A stretch of DNA of 64,000 nucleotides, from IMG/VR virus record IMGVR_UViG_3300010965_000002, positions 64,001 through 128,000 of that record; one strand, given 5' to 3'. Both the position numbers and the translations under genes were made by a program. Under the pieces are notes generated by a model. It had not been told where the DNA came from. It saw only the letters and a program-made list of their open reading frames with translations, and made no database searches. Of this stretch, positions 13,132 through 36,576 are shown piece by piece. The stretch comes from a virus. How positions within the stretch are numbered: the stretch's first letter is position 1; each line of letters begins with the position of its first letter.

Positions 13132-13148
13132 AATTTCTCCAAACAAGA

Positions 13149-17437: not shown

Positions 17438-18973
17438 ATGAACACTGTGTTTACTACAGCCGTTACGACAATTCCCACCGCGTGGGCCAATGATGTCAAT
17501 CGTGTTGTTTACGACGTACTCGGTGCGCCTGCAACTCTGGCGCAACTCCAAGCAGCACTGGGTCTTGGCCCGTTGCTAAACGGTGGGGCTTTAATCACTG
17601 TCAACGGTAGTGTTGATGGTAGCCCGATCGGTTCCAATCAACCAAGTACCGGCGTGTTCACGCGTGTACAAGTGGTAGGTAGCAACTCCGGGCTGACAGA
17701 CGTTGTGACTCATGCGCAACTGAACTCGGCGGTTGTCGGCGCTACAGGCATGATCGAAAACATGGCCTACCAAGACGCAGGTGCTGTGGACATCACTGGC
17801 GGGACACTTGATGCTGTCATTATTGGCAATGCCACACCAGGTCCTGGACGTTTCACAACGCTGAAAGCCAATGACCCAGTTAGTGGTAAGGACGTTGTCA
17901 ACATTCAAACGCTGGATACACGTTGGGCTACGCTGCCTAGCTTTGGCAATATGTGCGGCCAGAACAACACGGCTGTAAACATCGACGGTGGGTACATCGA
18001 CGGTGTTGTGATTGGTGCTACAAACGCTGTTGAAGCACGTTTCACCCGAGTGACAACCAATCAGTTGCTGGGTGGTACTTGCCATGTGTTCATGGATGGT
18101 GCTGCACCAGGTGCTGGACAATACGCGCTGCTGTTCGACATGTTGAGCAACGCTTCACTGGACCTTGGCTTCCGTTTGAAGGCTGGTGCTGCTGTCATTT
18201 TTGATTCTCCTGATGGCACGTTGACGTTCCAAGACGGTCGCCTGTTTGTCAACACGATTGATGACGGTGTTCACGATTTTCAATTAGGTGGTTCTGCACT
18301 GATTGATGACATCTTCCTCGGTAACACTCTGCCTAGCGCCGCAAACTCTGTTGTGTGCAAGCAATGGGTTGATCTGCAAGTTGTCAATGTCACAAACTTG
18401 ATTGCACCTGCAATCGCAGCCGCTGTTTCTGGCCTAGGTAACATCGTTAACCAAGATCAAGATGCGATCAACATCACAGGCGGCGCGATTGATGGTGTTG
18501 TGATTGGTGGTCTTGTTCCTGCACTGGCAACATTCACTCAAGTCAACACTGACATCCTGGTTGGTTCACACGGTTTGATTCGTTTGGACGGTACAGGCGG
18601 CTATGCAAACTCAGCAGTTATCCTCAGCGCCGACGACAACACACGACCCAACATCAGTGTAGTGCCAAATGCGAACGGTGCCTTCGCTGTCATGGCTGGC
18701 GGCGTGCCTGTGCATCGTACACACGTCAATGGTCGTACCGTTATCGGTGCAGGTGGTGAAGACGGTCTGAACACCTTACAAGTGTATGGCGACGCTGTTG
18801 TGCATGGACGCTTCACCTTGGATGGTGGCACTATGACTGGTACAGTGTCTGCTGATCTGGGCGTGACTGCACCTGCACTGTTGAATCCAGACACACCTCA
18901 TTGGGTTCGTGTTCGTGTTAACACCACGGCTGGTCTGCGCGAATGCGTGATGCCAGCTTGGGAAGTTATGTAA
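17438..18973 (+). CDS. tail fibre-like protein, family member 1
   Basis: AAGGA RBS; three GxMxxQxxxAVxITGGxxDxxxIG modules; N-terminus shared with 20172 and 28236. Confidence 0.75.
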   Translation: MNTVFTTAVTTIPTAWANDVNRVVYDVLGAPATLAQLQAALGLGPLLNGGALITVNGSVDGSPIGSNQPSTGVFTRVQVVGSNSGLTDVVTHAQLNSAVVGATGMIENMAYQDAGAVDITGGTLDAVIIGNATPGPGRFTTLKANDPVSGKDVVNIQTLDTRWATLPSFGNMCGQNNTAVNIDGGYIDGVVIGATNAVEARFTRVTTNQLLGGTCHVFMDGAAPGAGQYALLFDMLSNASLDLGFRLKAGAAVIFDSPDGTLTFQDGRLFVNTIDDGVHDFQLGGSALIDDIFLGNTLPSAANSVVCKQWVDLQVVNVTNLIAPAIAAAVSGLGNIVNQDQDAINITGGAIDGVVIGGLVPALATFTQVNTDILVGSHGLIRLDGTGGYANSAVILSADDNTRPNISVVPNANGAFAVMAGGVPVHRTHVNGRTVIGAGGEDGLNTLQVYGDAVVHGRFTLDGGTMTGTVSADLGVTAPALLNPDTPHWVRVRVNTTAGLRECVMPAWEVM

Positions 18974-18979: not shown

Positions 18980-19009
18980 GAGCGGATTGGCACACTAACC
19001 AATCCGCTC
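18980..19009. promoter_or_regulatory. perfect 11-bp hairpin GAGCGGATTGG/CCAATCCGCTC
   Basis: Read directly from sequence; 8-nt loop; no U-tract on +, so attenuator or processing site rather than clear terminator. Confidence 0.5.
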
Positions 19010-19019
19010 CCGTTAGTAT

Positions 19020-19187
19020 ATGCCAGATCAAGACAACACTCTCGCGGCTGGTCTGACTGTAGAACAACGCCTACTTAGGTGCAACAAGTGTACTAGCAAC
19101 AAGCAAGGCTGCTGCACTCACCAAAACAAAGAGATTGACCAGATGATTTTGCTGGTCAAGTCGCTCTGTCCTGAGCAGCGTTGGTAG
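19020..19187 (+). CDS. 55-aa Cys-rich protein (CxxC..CC..CPxxRW), absent from the ORF track
   Basis: MPDQDNTLAAGLTVEQRLLRCNKCTSNKQGCCTHQNKEIDQMILLVKSLCPEQRW; paralogous to 57061-57258. Confidence 0.7.
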   Translation: MPDQDNTLAAGLTVEQRLLRCNKCTSNKQGCCTHQNKEIDQMILLVKSLCPEQRW

Positions 19188-19208
19188 TAGGCACTAATTT
19201 AATTAAGT

Positions 19209-19227
19209 GCTAGGAAACAAGTCTAGC
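19209..19227. promoter_or_regulatory. GCTAGGAA-N5-TCTAGC motif, copy 2
   Basis: Intergenic; matches 3952-3970. Confidence 0.45.
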
Positions 19228-19264
19228 TATTCTTCAACAATCAACCACAGGTTAAAAGCACACT

Positions 19265-20158
19265 ATGAGTTCACGCTCTTTAGAAGCGCGTAGCGTAGGC
19301 AATGCAGTTAAATGGAGTGAGCTCCTGCTTAACACTTATGGACCTACAACATTGCGCAATTACATTGACGCAAAGGACAGTGCAATGTCCTTGTTGTTTG
19401 ACACCACAGTTGCCTCGATCAACGCCGTTCTGGTTCAACATACAAATGCAATAGACACGCTTACCACCAGTAAGCTAAATCGCACAGGTGATACTGCGCA
19501 CGGTCTTAGTAGCGATGGTTGGTTTACCTCTATTGCCGACACAGGCTGGCGCACTTCTTACGGCAGCGGTTTCACACAATCGAATGCCACACGTTTGGAA
19601 GTAACAGGCTCTGCGATCTTGTCAGCGGGTAATGGTGTCGAAAGCTCACAGTATGTGGCTTTGGTCACGGCCATGCGCTCGGTCTTCCGATTCCAGCAAG
19701 GGTCAGCCGTAACTGACTTCTATCGTGACCCTAACGGTGACGTTGGCTTGGTAGACAGCGTGCTGGGTAGTATCTGGCGTATGGTCGCCTCGACTGGTGA
19801 TCTGGAATTCAACCGCCGTGTCAAACTCAATCTGAGCACCATTCCAGGCAGCGGTAGCTACCTTGGTATTGATGCCAACGGTTATTTGGTGCGCTTGTCT
19901 ACGCCTCCGCCAGTTGGTACTCCTGTTGGAACTCCAGTCGGAACACCCGTTGGTACGCCAGTAGGAACACCTCCAGTCGGTACACCAGTAGGTACTCCTC
20001 CAGTAGGTACTCCTCCGGTTGGAACACCAGTTGGAAGTCCTGTCGGTACGCCGCCGGTTGGAACTCCTCCAGTAGGTACACCAGTTGGTTCACCAGTTGG
20101 TACTCCGCCAGTAGGCACACCACCCGTTGGAACGCCAGTCGGCAGTCCAGTGGGTTGA
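19265..20158 (+). CDS. fibre-like virion protein with C-terminal (P)PVG(T/S) repeat tail
   Basis: N-terminal KLNRTGDTAHG fibre-like segment; 19 PVG units ending PVGSPVG-stop. Confidence 0.75.
   Translation: MSSRSLEARSVGNAVKWSELLLNTYGPTTLRNYIDAKDSAMSLLFDTTVASINAVLVQHTNAIDTLTTSKLNRTGDTAHGLSSDGWFTSIADTGWRTSYGSGFTQSNATRLEVTGSAILSAGNGVESSQYVALVTAMRSVFRFQQGSAVTDFYRDPNGDVGLVDSVLGSIWRMVASTGDLEFNRRVKLNLSTIPGSGSYLGIDANGYLVRLSTPPPVGTPVGTPVGTPVGTPVGTPPVGTPVGTPPVGTPPVGTPVGSPVGTPPVGTPPVGTPVGSPVGTPPVGTPPVGTPVGSPVG
19904..20155 (+). repeat. coding tandem repeat, 19 PVG units
   Basis: Counted from DNA; codons differ from unit to unit; higher-order (PVGT PPVGT PPVGT PVGS)x3. Confidence 0.95.
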
Positions 20159-20171
20159 TTAGGAACATATC

Positions 20172-21620
20172 ATGCCAATTGTAAAACCGTACTACATTGA
20201 TACGGTAACCCATATACCAGCCGTCTGGGCCAACGCTGTAAGCGACCTGGTCTACGACGTGTTTGGTTTGGCTGGAACTAAAGCAGGTGCTCGCGCCGCG
20301 TTAGAACTAGGCAGCATGGCGTTACAGAATGCAGACAACATTCAAATCGTTGGCGGTAGCGTCAACAATGTGCCCATCGGTCTTGATGTGCCCATGCAAG
20401 GTCGCTTCACTGTGCTGTCTGTTGAAGTTGACCCTATTTCACCAGAACACGTAGTCAACAAGAGGTATTTGAACCAACGGTTAACAGCCTTCGGTCAAAA
20501 CTACGTACCTTGGACTGGTGGCACCATGACTGGGCCACTGCTGGCTTACGGTGACCCCGTAGGTCCGCTTGAAGTTGTGCCACGTCGTTGGGTTGATTTC
20601 CGAATCTTGGAAACGTTGCAAGACAAGCCTCTGCAACGCTGGCACACAGTAAGCACAGGTCAACCAACGTTTGAATGGACTTCGTTTGTACGGCCTCTGT
20701 ACGTATACCCTGAAAACTTCTTGGTCTACATAGACGGTCAGTTCCAGACGTTGGGTGTGAACTACACTGTTGACGTGACAGACGAGCCCGTGTTCGACTT
20801 TGGAACCTCTGTTGCAGTAGATCGTGAGTTCGACGTTGTTTATCTGAACAACCTGCGTAACTTGATTGCACTGGCACCTCCGTTCATCATTCCGCCAAGT
20901 GGCTTCTCTGCCGGCCCTGGCTGGAGCGACCCGATCAACATGCGTATCAACTATGTGCTGACCAATGCAGGCGAGAACCAAATCTCGTTGTCGCATACTG
21001 TGCTGCGTGAAATGTTTGTGGGCTGCGTTGTTACAACTGGTGCCTTGGTTGATCGTGTGGTTACGTGGTCAACACAATGGTTCCCAGATGCACCGTCGGC
21101 TGCGTTACACCCACCAGCGATGATTGCGGTCAGTGCTACAGAAGCGAAGCTGTCGTTGCCTGAAGGTTTGACTGACCACTACTGGGCTGGCCGTTTGGAA
21201 ATCACCATGCTGGTTGATGGTGTGCCTACTGGCTATCCGCTGTGGATGGACATGACGAACCAAGTGACGCCTGAATATCGTGACGGTCGTGTGCGTTGGG
21301 GTTCAACGGCAGCTCCTGTTATGAGCCCAGACATTGACATCACAAACGTGTTCTCAGGGCCTACTGGAAGTCTGCTTATTCCAGACGGTGACACTACCGC
21401 CGTGCCTATGATGCGTGTAATCGTTGCTACAGCTAACGTACCTAGTGGGGCACTGCTTGAACTGTGGGATGGAGTTACACTGGTTGGTTTGATAGGCCCT
21501 TCGTTAGAAGTCTTGATTCCTGCTGCTGCATTAGGCCCACACGCGTTTACTGCGCGTATCGTCAACGGTTCAAGTGTGACATTGGCTACGTCCAACACTT
21601 GGGACGTTACAGTAGTGTAG
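20172..21620 (+). CDS. tail fibre-like protein, family member 2
   Basis: IDTVTHIPAVWANAVSDLVYDVFG N-terminus; LGSMALQNADNIQIVGG module; YVPWTGGTMTG fibre motif; Ig-like C-terminus. Confidence 0.75.
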   Translation: MPIVKPYYIDTVTHIPAVWANAVSDLVYDVFGLAGTKAGARAALELGSMALQNADNIQIVGGSVNNVPIGLDVPMQGRFTVLSVEVDPISPEHVVNKRYLNQRLTAFGQNYVPWTGGTMTGPLLAYGDPVGPLEVVPRRWVDFRILETLQDKPLQRWHTVSTGQPTFEWTSFVRPLYVYPENFLVYIDGQFQTLGVNYTVDVTDEPVFDFGTSVAVDREFDVVYLNNLRNLIALAPPFIIPPSGFSAGPGWSDPINMRINYVLTNAGENQISLSHTVLREMFVGCVVTTGALVDRVVTWSTQWFPDAPSAALHPPAMIAVSATEAKLSLPEGLTDHYWAGRLEITMLVDGVPTGYPLWMDMTNQVTPEYRDGRVRWGSTAAPVMSPDIDITNVFSGPTGSLLIPDGDTTAVPMMRVIVATANVPSGALLELWDGVTLVGLIGPSLEVLIPAAALGPHAFTARIVNGSSVTLATSNTWDVTVV

Positions 21621-21825
21621 CTAAGGCATCCTGGTCTAGCTACCGTATCAACGTAGAGCAACAACTACATAGGCCATTCATTAAAGGGCTAGTTGCACAA
21701 ATCCCTGATGAAAGTTTTAAGCTCATGGAAGCCTGATGCATAATCTAGCTCCATGAGCTACTAGACGCGCTTCTAATAGAAGTCTAAGGCATCCCGATGA
21801 ACAACACATTACTTGGAACACAATC

Positions 21826-22443
21826 ATGAGTCAAAAAATCTCCGCAATGACGGCCCTTACTGTTTTAGCTGGTACTGAATTTGTGCCTGGTATTACAGCG
21901 GATTTGGAAAACGTCAAGATTCCAGTCGGCCTCTTTGCGCCGTCGAAGCTACTTGTGTCATTATTTGGTAACAACATGACAGGCATCTATCCAACAACAC
22001 AGTGGAATGACTGGACGGGTACAGCAGAAGTTACTACGCCTCACGTTGAATGGAGCGAGTACGACAAAGCCCTATTGTTTCATACTGGAGGTGTGTACAA
22101 GATTCGTATCACCACAAAACTGAGTGCGTTTGATTCTTACGTCAATCCTCAGTCACTGCCATTGAATATGTCAGTGGGTACGTTTATGAGCAATGCAACA
22201 ACGGTGCCTGCCGAAATGGAACGTAGTCGTGTAGCTATCACAGGCGATGTTCAAATGGGTTACAACGAAATCAGTCATGGACAATGGACTGACGAATACA
22301 TTGTGCTTGTAGCCTCAACAGAAATGATCTATCCTCAAGTGCATTGGCACCCAATGGACAGCAACAACGGCCAACAACTTGACATCCGTTCGACCATGAT
22401 GGTAGAACTTGTCGAGGCTCGTAACGTACAACTACCTGGCTAA
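21826..22443 (+). CDS. hypothetical virion protein (205 aa)
   Basis: N-terminal KISAMTAL..GTEFVP..NVK motif common in phage virion proteins. Confidence 0.65.
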   Translation: MSQKISAMTALTVLAGTEFVPGITADLENVKIPVGLFAPSKLLVSLFGNNMTGIYPTTQWNDWTGTAEVTTPHVEWSEYDKALLFHTGGVYKIRITTKLSAFDSYVNPQSLPLNMSVGTFMSNATTVPAEMERSRVAITGDVQMGYNEISHGQWTDEYIVLVASTEMIYPQVHWHPMDSNNGQQLDIRSTMMVELVEARNVQLPG

Positions 22444-23099
22444 TGAAAAAACTAGCCATTGTTACATTGACACGAGGTGAACGGCCTGAATGGTTTGAGC
22501 TTTGCAAGGAAAGTATTGCAAAAGCTCTGCCTGAGGATGCAGAGCACGTTGTTGTCCAGTGCCCAACTTACGCAGACGTTGAAGTTGCACGGTGGGAAGC
22601 CTTAAAACTAGCTGAATACATTGCGTTTGTAGACGACGATGACCTAATTATCAACGATAGCATCAACAAATTGTTGGTCGCCATTGAGAAAACAGGTTGT
22701 GGTGTTGCCTTCACAGACGAACAGCGAATTGATACAAACGGAAAGCCCTTTGAAGCAAACAAGCCCGTACGTTCGCGTGTGACCTACATGGACATCGCAT
22801 CAGGCGTACTTGGTTGTCACCATCTGGCTGTAGTTCGTACAAGCGCAGTTCCTCCAGAAGCTTGGGTAGAAGCACAGAAGATTGGCGCAGGCATCGACTG
22901 GCTTATCAATGCAACTGCTGCCTTAACTCATGGGGCTGTACGTGTGCCCATCTATGGATACCAATGGCGGCATCATAGCTCAGGCTTCCATATGACAACC
23001 GATTGGAAGACTGCTTTCAATACAGGTATATCTGATCTGCGTAAGTTCTTGCGTGGCTATGAGCCTAAAACAGATGAAGTTCCAATCTTCAAAGAATAA
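22443..23099 (+). CDS. GT-A fold (family 2-like) glycosyltransferase
   Basis: IVTLTRGERPEW..CKESI..YIAFVDDDD (DxD motif)..YQWRHH; TAATG-coupled to upstream gene. Confidence 0.82.
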   Translation: MKKLAIVTLTRGERPEWFELCKESIAKALPEDAEHVVVQCPTYADVEVARWEALKLAEYIAFVDDDDLIINDSINKLLVAIEKTGCGVAFTDEQRIDTNGKPFEANKPVRSRVTYMDIASGVLGCHHLAVVRTSAVPPEAWVEAQKIGAGIDWLINATAALTHGAVRVPIYGYQWRHHSSGFHMTTDWKTAFNTGISDLRKFLRGYEPKTDEVPIFKE

Positions 23100-23114
23100 T
23101 CCGTAGGAGCATTC

Positions 23115-24170
23115 ATGACGACGCCAGTTCCAGTTCCAGGAGAGAACGAACTCCTAATTCCGAATCTCGGTTCCACTCTTGACGTTACGCCAAAGGTGAT
23201 TGTTGAGCTTTCGTTTCCGTTACCTGCGGGTGCCAGTGTTGTTCTTCTGCGTGACGGTTTGGCGTTAACTGCCGTGCCAGTGCAAATCAGTCCTACAGCC
23301 TTTGAGTTTGCTGACGTTGTGACGCCTGGTACGTATAACTACACTGCCAAGGTTCGTCAAGGTGTACGTAGAGAAGAAAGCAATGTTTACACAATTACGG
23401 TCAATCAGGAACTGCCTGTGCCTACTATTGTGGTTTATGCGACTGTATCTATCGCAACGTTGTTCAATACCTCGTGTCCAACAAACGTGGATGGCAGTTA
23501 TATATTAAACGTAGGCATCGACCCAATCACGAGTTCAGGCGAGTACGCGATATACGATGTCAACAATTTACGTGTCGATTTGCCTGCGTCTAGTACAGAC
23601 ATTATTGTGCATACAGTAGGCGCAGCTACGGTAGTTGCGTATAACAGCTATGATTTCGTTAGTGCACCTGCCGTCGGCGATCAACTAAGGCTGGTTCTTA
23701 TAGACCCTGATTTTGTGCCTATAACACCAATGCCTGCAGAGACTTTCTATACGGAAACGGTATCAAGCTCGCCTGCAACCGACGCGGTGTATCCGTCACC
23801 GTTGGTGGCTGTGCTATCAATGCCGCTAACAGGCCCGAACGTTCATTGGGGTATTGGCACCACTACGCTTCTTGTCGAAGTAACGAACGTAGGCTCACAG
23901 GCTTATGGTGTAGGCTGTGGTGCTACAGGTGTCAGTGCGAACCAGTATTATCAATCAATAGAACCTGGTCAAACGTACATCTTCAATGTAGTGTGCTCTG
24001 GAAATCCTGGAGACTTGGCAGGTATATGGGTAAACATCAACACTATAGTTGTAGGCGGCGCTAACTTCTACATGGAGACACAACAAGTTGCAGCCACCCA
24101 ACCACATGTTGCTGAAATCCCTGGTTCCGTGGTAGCCCAGACTATAGTTGTGAACTGTGGTGGCGACTGA
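23115..24170 (+). CDS. Ig-like domain virion protein (351 aa)
   Basis: Beta-rich, V/T/P-rich; N-terminal domain paralogous to that of 24198. Confidence 0.65.
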   Translation: MTTPVPVPGENELLIPNLGSTLDVTPKVIVELSFPLPAGASVVLLRDGLALTAVPVQISPTAFEFADVVTPGTYNYTAKVRQGVRREESNVYTITVNQELPVPTIVVYATVSIATLFNTSCPTNVDGSYILNVGIDPITSSGEYAIYDVNNLRVDLPASSTDIIVHTVGAATVVAYNSYDFVSAPAVGDQLRLVLIDPDFVPITPMPAETFYTETVSSSPATDAVYPSPLVAVLSMPLTGPNVHWGIGTTTLLVEVTNVGSQAYGVGCGATGVSANQYYQSIEPGQTYIFNVVCSGNPGDLAGIWVNINTIVVGGANFYMETQQVAATQPHVAEIPGSVVAQTIVVNCGGD

Positions 24171-24197
24171 TGTACCTTTTAACACTAGGAAATAAGT

Positions 24198-27100
24198 ATG
24201 GCAACGGCTGCTGAACAAACACGCGAGATAATTATTCCGCATAACGGGTCTACACTTGATAGACTGCCAACGGTAAACGTACACCTGTCTGCTCCACTTG
24301 GGCCTAATATGGCCCTAAAGTTGTATATAAACGAGGTGCTTTCAACGGAGAATAGTTCAGAAATATCTCCTACTGAATACATTTTTTCTCCGCAGTGCAG
24401 TCCAGGCGTTTATACCTTTCGTGTAGACGTGGTACAAACTGCTAGTGGCTCAAACGTAATAGGCACTCGACCGAGTAACGTGCGTAACATCAAAGTTGAA
24501 GATGTCAATCAAGGATGGTCGGCAGCTATCAATCAAGATGGACCTTATGCGCGTGGCAACGCAGGTACCAGTGACAATTTCGATGACTTCAATTGGCACG
24601 ATAGCTTCTGGTTGGCCGTGATTGGAAACGTTAAGGTTACTGACATCGTTAGATGGGCAACCAGCTGGGCTCCAGGTTCAGATGGTGATCTACCACCTGT
24701 AGTTGTGCAACACACTGCACAAGCTGGTCTACCGCATCGTCTTGAACTGCAAGCCCGGCTTGGCAGCAAAGGTAGCGTTTCCTACTCAAGCGGTGTGATG
24801 ACCGTCACATTGATGGTGAACGAGGTAGCACTAGGTGATGTGCTTGAACTTACGCTGGAAGACGATCAAACGGATTCTCACGCAGAAAGTGCAACCTGGC
24901 GTGTGGTTGGTCCTTTAGTGCCGCCTGTGAGCATCCATCTGAGTGACAGTGTTACCATGCTGCCCGTAGATAACTCCGCTGGTGTAGTGTGGTACGACTT
25001 CGTTGTGCCTGGTACTAATCCGGTTGTGATCGACACCGTTGGAGGCACGGCAGATACTGAGATTGCCGTGTACGACAGTCTAGGACATCTGATTGCTCAG
25101 GACGATAGCAGCGGAAACGATGCCTTCGACAGTAGTTTGCTGACACTAACAGGCTTGACACCTGGTGCCACGTACTATCTGGCTGTGGGTGAATACCAGA
25201 TGACCTTTGGTACAGACAATTGGCAAGTTACGCAGCCTGATGGTTCGACAGGCGAAGCAGTTGTGTTGAATGCCAACCTGAGCTATGTGGCGACACCCTT
25301 AGCCTATGCGTTTGAGAACTTTGCGTTTGCAAGCATTCAAGCTCCGACAGGTAGTGCTACATTCCGTCATACACTCACTGGTTCAGGTGCTGCGGCAGTT
25401 GTTGATCTGTACGGTGTAGCTGACGTGGTACTGGAAACCTCTTCGCCGGGAACGACATCAACACGGTTGGTACCTATTTATTCACGCTTGCTAGGTGGTG
25501 CAATTGATGGTTATGAGTTCTGGGAAAATGGTTCTATGGTTAGCTCTGCTCCATGGGACCCATACGACACAACAGAACAGACTGTTCGACCTGTTGCGAT
25601 TAGCGAACATCTGTACAACGGACATTCGCCTGCAGCAAATCGTTTTGTGCGCTTCATATTGAGTCCTGACTGGTCAATTGAAATGACCACGGCGTTTGAT
25701 GGTCAACTGACGGCGGCTACATTCACTGGTGTTTGGGCAGGTAAAGCAATTTCTCGCACCCCAGCATTGGTTCAAACGTTGGAACTGGATAAAACTTTTG
25801 AAGTTAACCCAGTGGTACCTGTAACAAACCCATTCTCAATAACTTGGGACTATTCAAGCAGCGCCAATGGCAACATACGAACAGATACTGATTTGCCTCC
25901 TGGCTACGGCACGCCGACACCAGGTGTAAGTCGTTACCTGTTGAAAAACGGTATGGCCGTTACAGCAAGCATGACAATGCAAGCTAACGCAGGCCCTAAC
26001 ACGGTTCTGCAACCTGGTGACATTGTTATCCTGCAAGGTGTGATGCACGTTGGAACGTTGACAGGTACGGAGGATTCGCAGACACGCAACGTTGGTGGCG
26101 GTTACTCGCCGTTGACGCATACAGTGACTGAGCACCCATCGTATATCGGTGACGAAAATCTGCAACTGCTTGGTGAACAAGGTGTTGATTGGGCAAGTAC
26201 ACGTACTCAGTGTAGTTATCCATTAGGTCTTGATGCCCGCACTTTCACAATAAAAGCTACACCAACGATTGACCCTACAACTGGCGCTTGCGATTTTTGG
26301 TACGGCCCTTTCTTCACGCTCACGCAGGCAGAAATGTTTGCATTCGGCAATACCTCTGAGTTGATTTCTACCATCAACGGTATTGCGATCTACCGTGGCG
26401 GAGTGTCTCCTGCAAACTTGATATTCTCAGATGTGAATCGTGAGATATTCAAGATGCGATCAGAGGTGCGCGAAGACCCTGCACAGGCTTTGGTGCAGAA
26501 CTTCGCCGCAACGCCATTGTCGGGTACGGCTCCATTAGTTGTGACGTACCAAGACTTGTCGAACTTCCCAACGACCGATGTTTCGTACACGGTTACTGGG
26601 CTGCTGGTGAATGCCACTACCGACACAATCGGTATGCAAGGTGTGTACGACGTGATGCAAGAAGTGCGACGGCCTGATACGACGTTGTCCCAAGTCACGA
26701 AGACAGCTTACCTGACGGTGAATGAGCGCACGTATCCATCTGATGCACCTTACGTAGACATCTTCCGGGATGAATATAACGGTGTGGTGATCGACATTGC
26801 AAGCCATGTGCCTAACTTGGCACCTGTTGATGCGGTTGTGACGGGTACAAACGTGTTCACTACAGGCAATGGATACGTGCATCGCCAAGATACGAGTCAG
26901 ATGTATTTGCGTGTTGACACGGCACGACCTACAGGTACAAACTTTGACTACAAACTTGCGTGGTCAATGGCCTTTGCAGAACAGGTGTTCACAAACGGTA
27001 CGTTGTTCTTTGCCCATATTTTCGGTAACGACTATGGCGGCATGAACGGTGGCAATCCTGGCTATGCGGCTGTACGTGTGTTCCGTCAAGCTGGCGCTGT

Positions 27101-28019
27101 ACGTCTGGGTCTGACGTTGGAAAATTTAGGTGGTTCAAACTATGCTGAATTGACTACAACGCTGCCTTCGACTATGGGTACGATTTACGAGTGCGAACTT
27201 GTACTGACGCCTGCAGGCGCAACACTCAATGTGAATGGTGAAACATTGAACAACGTGTTTGACTCAAGCACTTGGGGTGACAGTCTGACAGCGTTCCAAG
27301 TCACAAACGTGGTGAACGCCATCTATCTGAACCGTATGCGTATGGCTTACAAGCCTGTGCTGTCGGTTGTGCTGCAAGAGGACTTCAATGGTGCTGCTGG
27401 TACGTTTGTGCCTCGTGCTCCAACATTGCCCGGAACTGGCTGGTTGACTGACCATGCCACACCTAGTGCAACTTGGCCGAGCATGGTGCTGGACGGCGCT
27501 GGTGCTTTGGTGACGCCTTTTGTGAACGGTAACTCCTACAACGGAGGAGTTACCGTAGCAAAACAAGTGGATGTGGTTGACCCTAACAATGGTGATCTGT
27601 CTTACGGAATACCTACTCAGCTTTCGAGCATTGAGTTTGATATTTCCACAGGTACTGCGTTCCGCACAGGTGGTACTTACATGTTCGCTATCTACTTACG
27701 GTTCGCCGCAGCAGATCAAGGCTTTGAAGACTACCTTAGTTTGTCAGCATACCGCGATCAAACGACTGGACAAGCCACTTGGGAGTATCAAAACGACTAC
27801 GGTGGAAACTACGACACACAAACGTTGCCTCTGGTGTTCACTGCAAACACTGATTACCTGGTAGTGATTACGAAAGTAGGCGCTACATTGGAAATTCGTG
27901 TGAACGGTGCGTTGATTTGGACGGTGCCTTTCGTGCAAGGCGATCAGCCTTTGTTGAGCGCCAACCTGCGTCAGCACAGCGGTAAGATTCGCTCACTCAA
28001 GGTATCTGGTTTAGGCTAG
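24198..28019 (+). CDS. large multi-domain virion adhesin-like protein (1273 aa; Ig-like, PPC-like, PKD-like, lectin-like modules)
   Basis: DTEIAVYDSLGHLIAQDDSSG..GLTPGATYYLAV (PPC-like); FAATPLSGTAPLVVTYQDLS (PKD-like); C-terminal ConA-like patterns. Confidence 0.72.
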   Translation: MATAAEQTREIIIPHNGSTLDRLPTVNVHLSAPLGPNMALKLYINEVLSTENSSEISPTEYIFSPQCSPGVYTFRVDVVQTASGSNVIGTRPSNVRNIKVEDVNQGWSAAINQDGPYARGNAGTSDNFDDFNWHDSFWLAVIGNVKVTDIVRWATSWAPGSDGDLPPVVVQHTAQAGLPHRLELQARLGSKGSVSYSSGVMTVTLMVNEVALGDVLELTLEDDQTDSHAESATWRVVGPLVPPVSIHLSDSVTMLPVDNSAGVVWYDFVVPGTNPVVIDTVGGTADTEIAVYDSLGHLIAQDDSSGNDAFDSSLLTLTGLTPGATYYLAVGEYQMTFGTDNWQVTQPDGSTGEAVVLNANLSYVATPLAYAFENFAFASIQAPTGSATFRHTLTGSGAAAVVDLYGVADVVLETSSPGTTSTRLVPIYSRLLGGAIDGYEFWENGSMVSSAPWDPYDTTEQTVRPVAISEHLYNGHSPAANRFVRFILSPDWSIEMTTAFDGQLTAATFTGVWAGKAISRTPALVQTLELDKTFEVNPVVPVTNPFSITWDYSSSANGNIRTDTDLPPGYGTPTPGVSRYLLKNGMAVTASMTMQANAGPNTVLQPGDIVILQGVMHVGTLTGTEDSQTRNVGGGYSPLTHTVTEHPSYIGDENLQLLGEQGVDWASTRTQCSYPLGLDARTFTIKATPTIDPTTGACDFWYGPFFTLTQAEMFAFGNTSELISTINGIAIYRGGVSPANLIFSDVNREIFKMRSEVREDPAQALVQNFAATPLSGTAPLVVTYQDLSNFPTTDVSYTVTGLLVNATTDTIGMQGVYDVMQEVRRPDTTLSQVTKTAYLTVNERTYPSDAPYVDIFRDEYNGVVIDIASHVPNLAPVDAVVTGTNVFTTGNGYVHRQDTSQMYLRVDTARPTGTNFDYKLAWSMAFAEQVFTNGTLFFAHIFGNDYGGMNGGNPGYAAVRVFRQAGAVRLGLTLENLGGSNYAELTTTLPSTMGTIYECELVLTPAGATLNVNGETLNNVFDSSTWGDSLTAFQVTNVVNAIYLNRMRMAYKPVLSVVLQEDFNGAAGTFVPRAPTLPGTGWLTDHATPSATWPSMVLDGAGALVTPFVNGNSYNGGVTVAKQVDVVDPNNGDLSYGIPTQLSSIEFDISTGTAFRTGGTYMFAIYLRFAAADQGFEDYLSLSAYRDQTTGQATWEYQNDYGGNYDTQTLPLVFTANTDYLVVITKVGATLEIRVNGALIWTVPFVQGDQPLLSANLRQHSGKIRSLKVSGLG

Positions 28020-28235
28020 AAACGGACAACCCAAGTTCAAAGACCTCAAATCTGAGAGCTTGGGTTGATCAAAAAGGGCGTACTCTAATTTAACATCCAT
28101 AGATTGACGCATAAAGTCAACTGTTGAATTGTGTGCGCAGGACTCATACGGAACACAGGTAAATCTGGGTATGTACCGACACAAACAAATTGCAACTGCA
28201 CCTGCTGTGTGCAGTAATTTACAAAAGGGTCTCAA

Positions 28236-29846
28236 ATGAGTGGAATTCTATTCGTTGACACCGTTACCCATGTACCTGCTGTATGGGCCAACGCGGTCAA
28301 TACTCTGGTCTACGACATTTTCGGTGCATCTACTACTTTAGCCCAGGCGCAACAACGTCTTGGGCTACAGTCGCTTGCTTACCAGCTTCACAGCCAGGTA
28401 AACATCACGGGTGGCAACATCAATGGTGTGGAAATGGGTACGGTCACTCCGGTAACACGGCTAGTAACTAAAGCAGGCTCAGTCATTGACGACCCTGTGG
28501 CTGACATTGACATTGTGAACAAAGGTTGGATGCGCGCCTGGATTCAAAACGCTCTGACCACAACGCAAACCGAATGGTTGGGTGGCCTTGGCACAATGGC
28601 CGTGCAGAACGCCAACAACGTTCGTATCATTGCAGGCACGATTGACAGCACAGACATTGGTTTACATGGTAGGGCCAGTGGTAAGTTCACCACGCTGAAA
28701 GCGTCAAATCCCCCGATTGACGGCGATGATGTAGTTACCTTAGGTTGGTTGACACAGCACTATGACGTGCGCCTCAATGCGTTACGCAGTATGGCGTATC
28801 AGGATGCAAATTCTGTAGCTATATCAGGTGGTGAAATTGACGGCGTGCGCATTGGGCTTACAGTGCCATCGGTAGCCCGTCTGGCAAACGGCACTATCAT
28901 TGCAGCGCCTACTACATACGAGAGCCTTGTAAATAAACGCTACGTAGACAGTAGCATCAGTGCAGCCTTGTCCAATCTCAAGACTATGGCATATCAGGAC
29001 AGTTTTGCTGTCTCGATTACAGGCGGCACAATTGACGGTACGGACATAGGCTTGACTGCGCCTTCGCGTGGCTTGTTCAGTGATCTGACAGTGCAAAAGA
29101 ACGCAGCCTGGCTGTACTTGAAAACACTGAGTACCGGTCCTGGCAATCTGAGTGGTATTCAATGGCGTGATGGTGTAAACGAGGTTGGCCGTTTGGCTTA
29201 CTACGGTGCAGACAATCTACCTTTGAACAACGCAATCGAACTTCGAGCTACAGTACCTATCCAGATTCAAAGCGACTCTGGTGCAGGTATCCGTATGGAC
29301 GGGACGAACACTCGCGTGTACGGACCTAACGTTCGGATTATCGAAGCCCTCAGTGACAAGTTGATTGTTGGTGGAGGCGCTGCGAAGACTGGATACGCTG
29401 CGACTTTCAATCGTCCTGGCTGGTTTGAAGCACTGGGCACGAAGCGCGGTTTCTTTGAACAAGGTCAGAGTGATGGTTACGACACTACCTATGCAACGGT
29501 AGCGGCTGGAACCCTGACGTTGCAAACGCATCAGAACAGTGCCGCGTTTATTAACCTAACAGGTAACGCCACAGTTCAGTTTGCTGCACAAGATGCTACT
29601 TGGGTTGGTCTTCGCGTAGTCCGGTTAATCATTCGCCACGATGTAGGCGGACGCACACTGGGCTGGCCGTCTAACGTTTTCTGGGTTGGTGGTTTTGAAC
29701 CTGACTATTCAACGTCACTGGCTCAAGACTTCGACCTCGTAGAACTGTGGACTTTCAACGGCGGCGCAAGTTGGTTCGCAAAATCCGCTTACGGAACTCT
29801 CGATACGGCCTCGGAAGTGGTCGCAATCCTCATGGCAGCAAACTAA
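28236..29846 (+). CDS. tail fibre-like protein, family member 3
   Basis: VDTVTHVPAVWANAVNTLVYDIFG N-terminus; four MAxQ..ITGG modules; C-terminal WPSNVFWVGG..TFNGGASWF domain. Confidence 0.78.
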   Translation: MSGILFVDTVTHVPAVWANAVNTLVYDIFGASTTLAQAQQRLGLQSLAYQLHSQVNITGGNINGVEMGTVTPVTRLVTKAGSVIDDPVADIDIVNKGWMRAWIQNALTTTQTEWLGGLGTMAVQNANNVRIIAGTIDSTDIGLHGRASGKFTTLKASNPPIDGDDVVTLGWLTQHYDVRLNALRSMAYQDANSVAISGGEIDGVRIGLTVPSVARLANGTIIAAPTTYESLVNKRYVDSSISAALSNLKTMAYQDSFAVSITGGTIDGTDIGLTAPSRGLFSDLTVQKNAAWLYLKTLSTGPGNLSGIQWRDGVNEVGRLAYYGADNLPLNNAIELRATVPIQIQSDSGAGIRMDGTNTRVYGPNVRIIEALSDKLIVGGGAAKTGYAATFNRPGWFEALGTKRGFFEQGQSDGYDTTYATVAAGTLTLQTHQNSAAFINLTGNATVQFAAQDATWVGLRVVRLIIRHDVGGRTLGWPSNVFWVGGFEPDYSTSLAQDFDLVELWTFNGGASWFAKSAYGTLDTASEVVAILMAAN

Positions 29847-29854
29847 GGTAAATC

Positions 29855-30247
29855 ATGGCCCAACTAATTTGGAATGTACAGAACGCGGTAAGCGTAACAA
29901 TCACCCCAGGCATCGGCACCGTCGCTGCGGCTGGAAATGTCACAGTAAACCCAACGGTTTCAACAACCTACACGCTGACGGCAACTGACCGTCGTGGCCG
30001 TCAAACGGTTGCAACCGTGGTCTTAGGGCCACCTGCTGTTGGCACTCCACCTGTCGGCACACCACCAGTGGGAACTCCTCCGGTTGGAACACCGCCTGTA
30101 GGGACGCCGCCCGTCGGTACTCCACCTGTCGGCACACCACCAGTGGGAACTCCTCCGGTTGGAACACCTCCTGTAGGGACGCCGCCCGTCGGTACTCCAC
30201 CTGTCGGCAGTCCAGTTGGAAGCCCTGTAGGCTCGCCAGTGGGTTAA
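29855..30247 (+). CDS. small Ig-like domain protein with PPVGT repeat tail
   Basis: LIWNVQNAVSVTITPG..PTVSTTYTLTAT Ig-like strand pattern, then 14 PVG units ending PVGSPVG-stop. Confidence 0.75.
   Translation: MAQLIWNVQNAVSVTITPGIGTVAAAGNVTVNPTVSTTYTLTATDRRGRQTVATVVLGPPAVGTPPVGTPPVGTPPVGTPPVGTPPVGTPPVGTPPVGTPPVGTPPVGTPPVGTPPVGSPVGSPVGSPVG
30047..30244 (+). repeat. coding repeat: 10 PPVGT + PPVGS + 2 PVGS + PVG, with a 75-bp higher-order duplication
   Basis: 75-bp block at 30047 repeats at 30122 with one substitution; third partial copy at 30197. Confidence 0.95.
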
Positions 30248-30248
30248 A

Positions 30249-30295
30249 AAGATGTAAATACATCTTGGCGAACAAGACCGCGCCTGTACGGTCTT
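30249..30295. promoter_or_regulatory. two adjacent hairpins, the first containing TGTAAATA
   Basis: AAGATGTA-AA-TACATCTT (30249-30266) and AAGACCG-N8-CGGTCTT (30274-30295). Confidence 0.5.
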
Positions 30296-30317
30296 ATCAA
30301 CTTACCTAGAGGTAAAA

Positions 30318-30725
30318 ATGAAACGCAATTTTAATGTAAAGCTGACCAATCTCAACGGTGGCATCCTCGTGCAACGTGTACCGCATCCAGAAGGTGGTAA
30401 CGAAAAAGATGAGCAAGGCAACGACATCAAAGGCGCCGACGGTCAGCCTGTTGCACGTTCGACAACGCAAGAACTGATTGCCAGCGATCTGGTGTGTACG
30501 GCCCTGCTGAGTCCTTTCAACGACGAGCAACCTTCCGCAGAAGAAAAGCACAAGCGTTTCAAGTTGGCACAACGTATCAACGCAGGTCAACAACAGGCAG
30601 CGAACGACGGTGGCACTACGGAAGTGGACATCACCTCGGAAGAGGCCACTCTGATTAAGAACCTGAGCGCCAAGTTGTATGCACCGTTGGTGGTTGGTCA
30701 GTTGATCGACATCATCGAAGGTTAA
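30318..30725 (+). CDS. tail fibre-associated chaperone-like protein
   Basis: EEKHKRFKLAQRI..DITSEEATLIK..LYAPLVVGQL pattern seen next to phage fibre genes; GAGG RBS. Confidence 0.55.
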   Translation: MKRNFNVKLTNLNGGILVQRVPHPEGGNEKDEQGNDIKGADGQPVARSTTQELIASDLVCTALLSPFNDEQPSAEEKHKRFKLAQRINAGQQQAANDGGTTEVDITSEEATLIKNLSAKLYAPLVVGQLIDIIEG

Positions 30726-30728
30726 ACA

Positions 30729-31592
30729 ATGAAATTTCAGATTACGAGCGCGGGTTTTGCTGCTGCGTTTGCTGCCTCCAATCAAGGGCCAGAAATACGC
30801 ATCGGAGAGTTCCGAATAGGTGCTGGTGTCGGCTATTCCCCCGCCGTAACTGATACTGCACTGCATGGAGCGGAGCTATTCACTGGGACGCCAACTGGCT
30901 ACCGAGTTATCGACCCTAATACTTGCGAGTTCACAATTCGCATGGATGAAACGGTAGGTACATGGCAGTTTGGTGAAGTAGGCTTGTATCTACTTGACGG
31001 CACCTTGTTTGCACTTGGTGCTTTGCAACGTCCTCAGTGGAAAGCTGCGTATCCTGACCGAGACTTCAACCGTTACAACGTCAAGATTCGGTTGATTATC
31101 AACGGGGCGATTCCCAAGATTGAGCTAGTCGTTCAACAGATCACTGCTGGTGTTATCTGGGAACTGCCAAGCGTTGACTATCTCCCTATGTTGCTGGATG
31201 CACAGACCAATGTGTATCTGTGTCACAGTCAGGACGAAAACGGTAACGATGCCTTGTGTACGATGGGTGATAATCGCTGGACGATTAACACGCATTTGCG
31301 CAGACAAGCCTCCGGCATCATCACGGCTGTCAACTTAGCAGGCACACAACTTTCTTCTCCCGTCATAGTGCTTGCGGACTCAACCCACGGACGCTATCTG
31401 ATTCAGTTTACAAGTGGCGCGGCAAAGGGTTTGGTGCGTGAAGTCGCAAGTCTGAGCTTCGGTCAAGCTACATGGCTAACACCTGAAGTCAACGTGGCTG
31501 TAGGCGATACTTTTGAATTGTTGCAAGGTAACTCAAGCAGCGATACGAGTGGTGGTGACGACGCCTTCTTCTTTTCGCTACTAGGAAAATAA
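30729..31592 (+). CDS. tail fibre baseplate-attachment protein (DUF3751/P2 gpH N-terminal-like)
   Basis: ITSAGFAAA..IGEFRIGAG..D.ALHG..GTWQFGEVGLYLLDGTLFA. Confidence 0.75.
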   Translation: MKFQITSAGFAAAFAASNQGPEIRIGEFRIGAGVGYSPAVTDTALHGAELFTGTPTGYRVIDPNTCEFTIRMDETVGTWQFGEVGLYLLDGTLFALGALQRPQWKAAYPDRDFNRYNVKIRLIINGAIPKIELVVQQITAGVIWELPSVDYLPMLLDAQTNVYLCHSQDENGNDALCTMGDNRWTINTHLRRQASGIITAVNLAGTQLSSPVIVLADSTHGRYLIQFTSGAAKGLVREVASLSFGQATWLTPEVNVAVGDTFELLQGNSSSDTSGGDDAFFFSLLGK

Positions 31593-31593
31593 T

Positions 31594-31908
31594 ATGGCAA
31601 TCAAAATCATAGGTCGCGGCATTCATGCGTCGGCGACCCCAAACGAAATTGTCTACACACCGCCTGGTGATGTGATAAGCGCAACCATTGCGACAGGTAC
31701 GGTTGAAAACATACTGCCGATAGGCGCTAAGTTGTTTATACGCATCGGTGGTCGTGGCATTTGGGTAATCAAAGGCAAAGATATTCCAGTCATGGGCGCG
31801 CCTCTCGTGCTGCCACCCATTACACTCAATCCTGGTGAATGGTTGGAAGCGTGGAGCGATACACCAAATGCACTTGACATTAACATAACGATTGGTGAAC
31901 AACGATGA
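31594..31908 (+). CDS. small beta-sandwich virion protein (104 aa)
   Basis: VYTPP..LNPGEWLEAWSDTPNALDINITIGE pattern; between fibre genes. Confidence 0.6.
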   Translation: MAIKIIGRGIHASATPNEIVYTPPGDVISATIATGTVENILPIGAKLFIRIGGRGIWVIKGKDIPVMGAPLVLPPITLNPGEWLEAWSDTPNALDINITIGEQR

Positions 31909-32414
31909 GCGGCTTTTTATTCCCCACAATGAGTCAAGGACCCAGCGACGTGTATATGGCGCGTGGTCGTCTGAGCCTCAGCGGTATTGGTGACTGGTAT
32001 AACGCTACGGCGTTAGGTGCTTATGAAGCACCTGCCAGTGAGTACACCAGTTATTCACACGCTGGTCCTTACATTCAAGATGGTCTGCTGCAAGTCCACC
32101 GTAGTGGTGCCTTTGTAGTTCAGTATCTTACGTATGCAAACGGCCAAACGTATTCTCGCGTGAACAGCAACGTAACAGGCAGCGGCGTTTGGACAGCCTG
32201 GACATTGTTAAGCGGTGGCGTGGTTGTAGGTACTCCAGTTGGTACTCCAGTTGGTACTCCAGTTGGAACGCCCGTAGGTACTCCAGTTGGTACTCCAGTT
32301 GGTACTCCAGTTGGTACTCCAGTTGGAACGCCCGTAGGTACTCCCGTAGGTACTCCAGTTGGAACGCCCGTAGGTACTCCGGTAGGTACTCCAGTTGGTA
32401 GTCCAGTGGGCTAA
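31905..32414 (+). CDS. pyocin-knob-like fibre domain protein with PVGT repeat tail
   Basis: GLLQVHRSG..VQYL..TYSR..WTAW knob motif; 15 PVG units ending PVGSPVG-stop. Confidence 0.75.
   Translation: MSGFLFPTMSQGPSDVYMARGRLSLSGIGDWYNATALGAYEAPASEYTSYSHAGPYIQDGLLQVHRSGAFVVQYLTYANGQTYSRVNSNVTGSGVWTAWTLLSGGVVVGTPVGTPVGTPVGTPVGTPVGTPVGTPVGTPVGTPVGTPVGTPVGTPVGTPVGTPVGSPVG
32235..32411 (+). repeat. coding repeat: 13 PVGT + PVGS + PVG (12-bp unit)
   Basis: Counted from DNA; units CCAGTTGGTACT, CCAGTTGGAACG, CCCGTAGGTACT intermixed. Confidence 0.95.
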
Positions 32415-32428
32415 TTAGGACAAATGTC

Positions 32429-33025
32429 ATGGCATATACTTTAATAGTAGAAAAAGAAGAGGCTCGGATTGTTTTCATTCGTGATGCAACCGCGCCTCTA
32501 CTGCTCGACGCTTTGTGGCCGCCTGTTGGATATAACTATCTGCACTGGCCCTTTGCGGTGTCCGACGAAGTGCTAGCCGCGCCGTGGAACTACGTGATTC
32601 AAGGCAACAAAATTGTTGCCTCGACTTATACCTTTCAAAGTAACGCTATCGAAAACGCAAAACGTGGTGGATTACTTGTACAGCTTGCGCGGGCAACTAA
32701 TAGACATCGTCGCATGGTCTTGAAGGAAGATATACAAGGTCAAGCCGATGTGTATCGTCTGAAAGCAGACGAGGCTACACGCTTCTTAGCAGATACTCAA
32801 CAAAGTCCAAGTGCATTTCCTTGGCTGTCTGAGACTGCGGCGTTTGAAAGCCTCACCCTTGAGCAATCCGCAAATCAGATAATGTTTCGACATACGCAGC
32901 AGCAAGCAATCCTGCGGCATACTGAGAATCAACGTCGGTGGTTTACACGTCGTATCCTGACAGCGGGTGTTAACGAACTTGAAACAGTAAGAACAGAGTT
33001 GACAGACTATGAACGCAGAGGTTAA
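32429..33025 (+). CDS. tail fibre assembly-like protein
   Basis: QADVYRLKADEATRFL..FPWLSETA..LEQSANQI pattern typical of genes following fibre genes. Confidence 0.6.
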   Translation: MAYTLIVEKEEARIVFIRDATAPLLLDALWPPVGYNYLHWPFAVSDEVLAAPWNYVIQGNKIVASTYTFQSNAIENAKRGGLLVQLARATNRHRRMVLKEDIQGQADVYRLKADEATRFLADTQQSPSAFPWLSETAAFESLTLEQSANQIMFRHTQQQAILRHTENQRRWFTRRILTAGVNELETVRTELTDYERRG

Positions 33026-33698
33026 ACCTTCATGGTGGTATGGTGATGATAGTACCAAGCAAGTGCCTGGTCAATTAGTACCTGCCGATAATCCAGTGCC
33101 GTATTGGACAAGCCAATTACTGAATGAGTCAGAAGCAGATGCCATCTACCATGCAGTGATTGCCCAATATACCCGCAAACAATTGCATCGTGTGTACAAC
33201 CCAGATGGTCAAGGCGATCAAATCAATCTTGACAGTCGATACACGCATGCCTACGACTTCTACCAAGTTCCTGGTGCTGCGGACATTGAAGCCCGCTTCA
33301 ACGCGGAGGTCGCACGCTGTGCAAGAACGTGGTGGAACAAAGAATCTGTGCCTGTGTACACGCCGCAGATTCTGGGCTATGAAGAAAAATGTCGGTTCCG
33401 CACTCATTGTGACAACAGTATTTGGAATGACCAAGGCTGGACTCAGAATGACCCGATGCGAGACGTTACGGCCTTGCTGTACGTCAGTGATTGTGTGCCA
33501 ACGGTCACCCGGCCGAACCAGCACAGCGGAGGTGAGCTAGTGTTAGATAACGTACAAACGGCAAATGGCCCAGTACGTATAGCTCCCAAAAAAGGTCAGT
33601 TTGTGATGTTCCCGTCACATCCTGTTTACCGTCACCAAGTAACGCCAGTCACTCGCGGTTATCGTATCGCGTTTGTAAACTGGTGGAGCCTAAGGTAG
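33009..33698 (+). CDS. 2OG-Fe(II) oxygenase, prolyl 4-hydroxylase-like
   Basis: HCD..TALLY..GGEL..MFPS..RHQV..GYRIAFVNW (HxD...H...R). Confidence 0.9.
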   Translation: MNAEVKPSWWYGDDSTKQVPGQLVPADNPVPYWTSQLLNESEADAIYHAVIAQYTRKQLHRVYNPDGQGDQINLDSRYTHAYDFYQVPGAADIEARFNAEVARCARTWWNKESVPVYTPQILGYEEKCRFRTHCDNSIWNDQGWTQNDPMRDVTALLYVSDCVPTVTRPNQHSGGELVLDNVQTANGPVRIAPKKGQFVMFPSHPVYRHQVTPVTRGYRIAFVNWWSLR

Positions 33699-36465: not shown

Positions 36466-36482
36466 AAGCACTGCGTGCAAAG

Positions 36483-36505: not shown

Positions 36506-36576
36506 TTACTGGTAAGTGTAACGTCACACATAGTTGGCATCACATACCCAATAGTATTTATTTAGAAAGATCACCC

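Follow-up and report, generated by a model that had tools for sequence, protein, structure and literature searches.

Why should three proteins with unrelated N-termini end in one and the same repeat? The question is raised by a 64,000-nt stretch of viral DNA, here called the window, which comprises bases 64001-128000 of the IMG/VR virus record IMGVR_UViG_3300010965_000002 (176,943 bp, linear, estimated 72% complete). Three genes of its long tail-fibre module, encoding what we call proteins A, B and C (Table 1), each finish in a proline-rich (P)PVG[T/S] tract. Comparison of the tracts with each other and with those of related viruses indicates that one selected C-terminal module, portable and conserved at its free end, is carried by three proteins of the fibre module that are otherwise unrelated.

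In-frame translation gives 19 PVG units for A, 14 plus one PAVG for B and 15 for C, exactly the numbers that an initial annotation of this DNA had assigned to the genes starting at 19265, 29855 and 31905. The identical PVGSPVG end that it described is likewise found in all three open reading frames (ORFs), with the stop codon immediately after Gly (B closes with PVGSPVGSPVGSPVG-stop), and Ser is indeed the last hydroxy residue of each tail, an arrangement that random placement of Ser among the T/S positions would produce with p ~0.0024. The window contains PVG-[S/T]-PVG-stop three times, where 100 shuffles give an expectation of 0.00, and the whole 176,943-bp record holds no fourth such tract. 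The N-domains show no BLASTP similarity to one another, as the same annotation had maintained, and since they share a selected tail with a conserved free end its idea of a portable module is upheld. A looks like a short fibre, as its neighbours in the Atlas are tail-fibre-like and its homologues bear a classic fibre repeat insert; residues 2-44 of B match the virion structural protein family phrog_2155; and the N-domain of C is weakly similar to an R-pyocin fibre tip, its Foldseek match to the R1 pyocin fibre (E 0.14) being a lead only. All three lie in the tail-fibre module, downstream of the genes for sheath and baseplate, and from this position we infer that they are virion proteins. Read-through or frameshifting into the next gene was considered and rejected, the downstream ORFs lying in other frames with their own ribosome-binding sites, and the minus-strand and +1 ORFs that cross the repeats were dismissed as repeat artefacts.

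The variation of codons from unit to unit had been taken to point to selection on the peptide, and the counts bear this out. In the tails of A and B the codons for P, V, G and T are invariant at their first and second positions, while the third position has an entropy of 1.4-2.0 bits; departures from the modal codons are 42 synonymous versus 3 non-synonymous in A and 42 versus 4 in B, and the non-synonymous ones are all T>S or P>A. The C array, with 19 synonymous departures and 1 non-synonymous, is by the same measure younger than the other two. Tandem Repeats Finder detects higher-order repeats in each array (units of 54 bp in A, 12 bp in C and, at 98%, 75 bp in B), and the duplications in A and B are recent. 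Together with the synonymous excess, they argue that the arrays grow by duplication while the peptide is held constant. We examined 18 tails of 40-121 aa from the window and its relatives, and found no stop codon or frameshift within them. All 18 end in G-S-P-V/I-G, written in varying synonymous codons across lineages. Because the terminal motif is kept despite synonymous change, the free end G-S-P-V/I-G-COOH, like the tail peptide as a whole, is on the evidence of its codons under purifying selection. A DNA or RNA signal in the last unit (AGT CCA GTG GGT) was also considered; it is striking in the window and in relative L019 but varies across lineages, where GTT, GTC, GTA, ATC, TCT and TCG are all used, and we rejected it.

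How the tails evolve can be followed in relatives, which we sought with the N-domains. Very few were found (seven homologues of A among 1.8 billion cluster representatives), and the gene order of the window is shared by L016, L019 (a 209-kb NCBI contig), L020, L021/L143 (a 223-kb ENA contig), L144, L022 and L017. Wherever the contig covers them, the orthologues of A, B and C in all these relatives bear Pro-rich tails, and the tailed trio is present in at least four diverged relatives (L016/L019/L020, L021/L143, L144 and L022). The variant of the tail is shared among the genes of one genome and differs between genomes: the window has PVGT/PPVGT and L019 a Ser-rich mix of PVGS and PPVGS, each of the three L144 genes has hexads of SPAPVG, and B and C share PVGSPVI heptads in L021 and runs of SPSPAP/APAP in L022. 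The L021 copies of B and C agree in every one of their final 62 residues and in 59 of the 62 codons, which shows recent gene conversion between these two tails; in the window and in L022 the tails are alike in peptide, but not in codons. It follows from such comparisons that the likeness of the three tails within a genome is maintained at least partly by gene conversion. In L021, the genome with the recent homogenisation of B and C tails, a gene resembling an HNH_3 homing endonuclease lies at L021:9482-9985, between the gene for the 104-aa protein and C.

Length is far less constrained than the end. The A tail has 41 aa in L016 versus 95 aa in the nearly identical L019, and 121 aa in L143, so repeat number, judged from these genomes, expands and contracts freely. 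Among the homologues of A, P0001 and P0003 are tailed and P0002 is tail-less. In the close relative L018, whose neighbouring fibre gene is 92% identical to that of the window, A is tail-less and stops exactly at the junction, which marks the tail as an add-on. Lineages that keep the terminal motif have N-domains only 50-70% identical. A short homologue of B, P0013, has PVVGG units, is largely free of Ser and Thr in its tail and ends in G-G-P-I-G; Ser and Thr are thus usual, but not indispensable. The N-domain of A is only 58-73% identical between 19265-20158 and its counterparts at L018:87-905 and L017:988-1938, where the flanking fibre genes are 92-97% identical, and gene A thus looks to be a fast-swapping cassette.

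Scanning IMG/VR for the terminal motif gave 0 matches. A scan of genome contigs for PVG tails returned mostly high-GC actinobacterial off-frame or doubtful ORFs, with no clean C-terminal tail and no clue to the host, and in the literature we found no paper describing PVG[S/T] tails. New here are the conservation of the trio in relatives, the genome-specific variants, the free repeat number and the uncharged tails with a selected end. Internal PPVGT linkers are present in large proteins (685-1068 aa) of the unrelated viruses L242, L243, L244 and L246, and the repeat unit itself is thus a recurrent viral linker; as a terminal tail, to judge from these searches, it is confined to the present clade.

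The physical character of the tails is uniform. All 18 lack charged and aromatic residues as well as Cys, Met, Asn, Gln and Leu; the Pro fraction is 0.24-0.37, the Gly fraction 0.14-0.26 and 2P+G 0.72-0.94. In the low-confidence AlphaFold2 (AF2) model of C (pLDDT 50) tail residues 106-169 have a pLDDT below 50 and no secondary structure, and we compute that the window tails would measure ~19-26 nm if fully extended as a polyproline II (PPII) helix. Rich in Pro and Gly, uncharged and without predicted stable structure, they fall in the class of elastin-like or elastomeric disordered domains, a likeness of working and not of homology. Other classes fit less well. Gly recurs at a spacing of 4 or 5 in the window and 4-7 in relatives, which is not the (G-X-Y)n of collagen; against the Extensin family PF02095 B scores 38.1 bits, far below the cut-off of 105, and A and C give no match; and no C-terminal sorting signal (LPXTG, PEP-CTERM, GlyGly-CTERM) is present in A, B or C, which stop directly after ...SPVG. 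The tails also fall outside the O-glycosylated mucin or Pro/Thr/Ser (PTS) class, the glycosyltransferase (GT)-like gene of the window not being co-distributed with them and the P0013 tail being largely without Ser and Thr. Nor do they resemble substrates of ubiquitin-like/E1 conjugation, since their disordered tract closes with one Gly and not with the Gly-Gly of a beta-grasp protein.

What partner could hold such a peptide constant? The best candidate is the P4H-like (prolyl 4-hydroxylase-like) 2-oxoglutarate (2OG)-Fe(II) oxygenase encoded two genes after C, whose position links a P4H-family oxygenase genetically to a Pro-rich protein, as expected for a P4H substrate. The block of C, assembly-like protein and oxygenase is conserved in L019, L020, L021 and L022, and the longer series of C, assembly-like protein, oxygenase, 234-aa ORF, two small ORFs, desaturase and PP-loop gene is kept in L019, L021 and L022 as far as the contigs reach. 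Independent adjacencies were sought in IMG/VR with DNA patterns for PVG-type repeats, in a small sample of 19 loci. One lies on L012, an unrelated viral contig, where 17 nt separate the gene of a 233-aa 2OG-FeII_Oxy_3 protein from the preceding gene, whose Cys-rich product of 339 aa contains (PVGT)5PVG as an internal tract. The 233-aa protein and the window enzyme are 29.5% identical over 166 aa (E 2.6e-17), and nothing else in the entire 177-kb genome is homologous to the loci compared. L245, also an unrelated viral contig, shows a second: behind the gene for an adhesin of 1313 aa (Laminin_G/PA14) comes one for a 446-aa protein, whose PPVGS/EPPVG repeats lie close to the C-terminus, and next one for a 2OG-FeII_Oxy_3 protein of 204 aa. 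A hidden Markov model (HMM) of the oxygenase subfamily found 0 matches in 160 control loci (0.99 Mb), the enzyme is matched by only 2 of 50,697 cultured-phage records, and a search of IMG/VR for related loci with the tail-collar protein, the oxygenase and their alignments yielded nothing beyond L012. Within this small sample the oxygenase subfamily is tied to PVG-type repeats in three separate virus lineages.

Our favoured explanation is that each tail is an extended, disordered PPII or elastin-like whisker that would hang from the distal C-terminal end of its fibre protein, and that all three copies would serve one common partner, the P4H-like oxygenase, by which Pro residues in [S/T/A]-Pro motifs would be hydroxylated. 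Later steps by other enzymes of the downstream gene island are conceivable but unsupported, and the modified whisker would most plausibly help the phage to adhere to the host surface or to reach it. A tail that serves the adjacent oxygenase as substrate is the best-supported mechanism, and we give it an even chance. Since a conserved, co-evolving tail and a hydroxylase-like gene beside such repeats in three lineages coincide, the phage probably modifies its own fibre tips. The initial annotation had proposed a tag read by neighbouring enzymes, P4H among them, and had named co-occurrence of tag and enzymes across phages as a check: gene linkage to the oxygenase, syntenic in the relatives and with homologues directly behind repeat proteins in L012 and L245, agrees with the proposal and the oxygenase occurs together with the tails, while the modification itself stays predicted and the GT-like gene does not follow the tails.

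Several points weigh against a hydroxylated tail. The modification is predicted from genes alone, and it is gene position that places A, B and C in the virion. All tail-bearing genomes belong to one clade, so that synteny within it counts as a single event, and no oxygenase gene lies near the PPVGT-linker proteins of L242, L243, L244 and L246 within their short loci. The nearest solved relatives of the enzyme, the PiuC-type PKHD hydroxylases, are without a proven peptidyl-proline substrate. In PBCV-1, the classic case of a viral P4H, hydroxyproline is not found in the virions (PMC7019647). Finally, the P0013 tail implies that O-linked chemistry on Ser and Thr cannot be universal.

The main rival is a purely physical tail. 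It would be a flexible, uncharged spacer, whisker or elastin-like tether, left unmodified, whose last residues dock on the virion or on the host surface, and the oxygenase island would act on other targets, for instance lipids, small molecules or host proteins. Predicted disorder and composition suit such a tail, as does a length that is free while the end is conserved; large viral proteins with no oxygenase nearby do use PPVGT repeats simply to link domains, and the desaturases, short-chain dehydrogenases/reductases (SDRs), aminotransferase and B12-radical SAM enzyme of the island suit lipid or metabolite chemistry. Iyer et al. took the dioxygenase arrays of cyanophages as secondary-metabolite genes (PMC2938197), which supports the same view. 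Three independent adjacencies of PVG repeat and oxygenase, with 0 matches in 0.99 Mb of controls, would be hard to obtain by chance, and we regard the unmodified whisker or docking tail as possible, though on balance doubtful. Much less probable is that the tails are a neutral by-product, replication-slippage expansions of a linker remnant that are alike through shared descent and gene conversion. The higher-order DNA repeats in B and C, the rapid change of copy number, the conversion in L021 and the tail-less A orthologue of a close relative could all be read in this way, but third positions in A and B near saturation beside invariant first and second positions, a terminal motif kept by synonymous change across such diverged N-domains, and long tails free of stops and frameshifts make it very improbable. 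Least credible of all is a collagen-like or other regular triple-helical stalk that trimerises the fibre proteins. Most fibre proteins do form trimers, and phage fibres with Pro/Gly-rich repeats are known, but Gly comes every 4-7 residues and never every third, the tract sits at the extreme C-terminus with nothing to hold, and the AF2 model is without structure.

A richer chemistry can be imagined in view of the ~22-kb same-strand island (32429-55162) that lies downstream of C. It encodes at least ten 2OG/cupin-type oxygenases, namely 2OG-FeII_Oxy_3, six Asp_Arg_Hydrox proteins (Asp/Asn-beta-hydroxylase family), TauD, PhyH and a weak 2OG-FeII_Oxy_5, and besides these two fatty-acid desaturases, the B12-radical SAM enzyme, SDRs, an NfsA-like nitroreductase, a GNAT protein, a class-III aminotransferase and two weak PP-loop proteins; chemistry on lipids or metabolites is as plausible a role for it as protein tailoring. 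The initial annotation had combined hydroxylation with O-glycosylation by the GT, cyclodehydration to azolines at Gly-Ser/Thr and C-terminal Gly conjugation by RRE/E1-like and PP-loop enzymes (RRE, recognition element of ribosomally synthesized and post-translationally modified peptides, RiPPs). Such multi-enzyme decoration would draw on the possible RRE plus E1-like fold of the 234-aa protein, on the conserved SGGMDS PP-loop enzyme and on the strictly conserved C-terminal Gly. Its separate steps fare poorly. The tail-bearing relatives L016, L019, L143 and L144 carry no homologue of the GT-like gene in their fibre modules, so that this gene is probably outside the tail system, and the P0013 tail lacks the Ser and Thr to be glycosylated. 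Azoline formation finds no YcaO in the 177-kb record (72% complete), where the nitroreductase is NfsA-like and not SagB-like. For adenylation of the C-terminal Gly there is no ThiF match in the 177 kb, and the 234-aa protein has D-x-T-x-N-x-V-G in its E1-like region in place of GxGxxG. We consider the full scheme possible, though mostly unsupported and improbable.

The 234-aa protein itself gave no HMM match. Its AF2 model (pLDDT 52) has a beta3-alpha topology, and the top Foldseek matches are the RRE plus E1-like RiPP enzymes TruD, LynD, MccB, PaaA and McbB (E down to 4e-5); the model is of low confidence, and its VIA Z of 7.1 is tied with generic Rossmann-only matches. The fold assignment is suggestive only, and the protein may possibly be a non-catalytic peptide-binding adaptor. 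One could imagine on this footing a RiPP-like tailoring of full-size virion proteins, in which an RRE-type adaptor would present the PVG[S/T] tag and the 20-kb island of oxygenases, radical-SAM and PP-loop enzymes would hydroxylate and derivatise it; the product would be chemically hardened or sticky elastin/AGP-like (AGP, arabinogalactan protein) fibre-tip whiskers with the free end as a conjugation or recognition handle. We think this scheme as a whole unlikely. Any link between the PP-loop protein and the tails would be speculative. A conserved 66-aa acidic helical ORF (36265-36465), 72% identical in L019 and without a Pro-rich motif, separates the PP-loop gene from that of the desaturase.

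The genome around these genes is that of a phage with a contractile tail. The window encodes the sheath at 529-2499 and baseplate hub and wedge proteins at 4006-17001, and the long tail-fibre module runs from 17438 to ~33000 (Table 1). By sheath protein the nearest cultured phages are the jumbo myophages BcepSauron, phiRSL1 and Motura, at an identity of only 36-38%. Against cultured phages neither megablast with 19000-33000 nor tblastn with the N-domains of A and C, the 33705-34409 ORF and the PP-loop ORF gave a match, and the phage is by these comparisons a member of an uncultured clade of jumbo myophages that has no cultured member.

Table 1. Genes of the tail-fibre module and of the adjoining part of the downstream island, in window coordinates.
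Feature	Position	Strand	Basis
Fibre gene 1, 511 aa, upstream of A	17438-18973	+	sequence and cross-matches
Protein A, 297 aa: tail-fibre-like N-domain (1-213) and 84-aa (P)PVG[T/S] tail at 19904-20155	19265-20158	+	
Fibre gene 2, 482 aa; starts 14 nt past the A stop	20172-21620	+	sequence, relatives
GT2-like protein, below Pfam cut-off	22443-23099	+	sub-threshold Pfam match
Fibre gene 3, 536 aa, phrog_7760 tail fibre; ends 9 nt ahead of B	28236-29846	+	phrog match
Protein B, 130 aa: single Ig-like domain (~58 aa) and 71-aa PPVGT tail at 30032-30244	29855-30247	+	
Tail-collar fibre N-terminal protein (287 aa, PF12571) and 104-aa protein, directly upstream of C	30729-31908	+	
Protein C, 169 aa: beta-rich N-domain (~105 aa) and 62-aa PVGT tail at 32226-32411	31905-32414	+	
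Tail-fibre-assembly-like protein (DUF4376-like), 198 aa, after C; 17-nt overlap with oxygenase gene	32429-33025	+	
P4H-like 2OG-Fe(II) oxygenase (2OG-FeII_Oxy_3), candidate tail modifier	33009-33698	+	HMM; nearest solved: PKHD-type PiuC, Sbal_3634
234-aa protein, possible RRE and degenerate E1-like fold	33705-34409	+	AF2 model, Foldseek
PP-loop ATP-pyrophosphatase-type protein (SGGMDS), conserved in relatives	36475-37506	+	motif and homology

Every tail gene comes after a fibre gene. Fibre genes 1, 2 and 3 have an N-terminal anchor motif (…DTVTH-PAVWANAV…) in common, and each has other fibre-module genes directly or nearly directly behind it, an arrangement that suggests a multi-fibre baseplate with interchangeable fibres. 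The assembly-like protein after C (Atlas score 0.94, 196 shared features, TM 0.50-0.70) is conserved in relatives. The spacing behind the tails is not the same throughout: A and C, unlike B, are followed by the next start codon after 14 nt, with similar TTAGGA-containing spacers, and the stretch directly past the B stop, at 30248-30275, contains a short inverted repeat (AAGATGTA…TACATCTT) that may form a hairpin or serve as a terminator.

Of the unexplained genes of aquatic phages, those for 2OG oxygenases, P4H-like ones included, rank with the commonest, and they are usually classed as auxiliary metabolic. A candidate substrate encoded next door, on three fibre proteins, makes self-tailoring of host-binding fibres by a phage directly testable. 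If it is true, the determinants of phage host range would include post-translational chemistry that is invisible in gene sequence, and tag and enzyme together would make a compact means of hydroxylating proteins at chosen sites. In the way the tails are homogenised genome by genome, moreover, nature offers a clean case of non-homologous genes that evolve in concert.

The known systems nearest to this one share parts of it. Like the window phage, PBCV-1 combines in one virus a small P4H-type 2OG oxygenase with short Pro-rich tandem-repeat proteins, the repeats being of PAPK type. It differs in being a eukaryotic virus, without a shared C-terminal tag or an argument from gene adjacency, and its P4H is active in vitro, whereas the window enzyme is known from its gene alone and is PKHD/PiuC-like by sequence. 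The activity on Pro-rich repeat peptides is described as sequence-specific in PMC7019647, which cites Eriksson et al. 1999. Among phages, Iyer et al. 2010 (PMC2938197) described clusters in which genes for beta-hydroxylases, PhyH proteins and acetyltransferases accompany phage-tail-type or Gly/Pro-repeat proteins, and predicted that tail-collar and collagen-like proteins are substrates of the co-encoded beta-hydroxylase/PhyH dioxygenases; tandem arrays of many dioxygenases are known from phages such as cyanophage Syn9 (PMC2938197). Those clusters differ in their sulfotransferases, synthesis of PAPS (3'-phosphoadenosine-5'-phosphosulfate) and collagen-type GXY repeats, the substrate idea is still a prediction there, and a PVG[S/T] C-terminal tail, a conserved free end and concerted evolution are not described for them.

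The window phage would also resemble the Che8-type mycobacteriophages, in which phage-encoded enzymes covalently decorate the phage's own structural proteins, as is predicted here. The glycans of Che8 reportedly sit on C-terminal Ser/Thr-rich extensions of unrelated virion proteins. Che8 uses glycosyltransferases on capsid and tail-tube proteins, whereas the window candidate is an oxygenase and its GT-like gene is not co-distributed with the tails. That Che8-type phages glycosylate their capsid proteins is stated in PMC11256854, which cites Freeman et al. 2023 on virion glycosylation.

Elastin-like, AGP/extensin-like and PTS mucin-type domains are alike to the tails in their uncharged P/G/V/A/S/T composition, [S/T/A]-Pro dipeptides and predicted disorder, and the 2P+G values given above are within the range reported for elastomeric proteins, for which Rauscher and colleagues are said to have set a threshold of 0.6 in 2006. 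These domains differ in that there is no homology and in that the window tract is strictly C-terminal, on phage fibre proteins, with a conserved terminal pentapeptide. The Borg elements (PMC9879509), finally, are similar in that the proteins of a large mobile element gain disordered regions rich in Pro, Thr and Ser from in-frame, fast-evolving tandem repeats. Their repeats are recent and arise independently, whereas the tail type of the window is common to three genes, old, as its saturated synonymous sites indicate, and conserved at its end.

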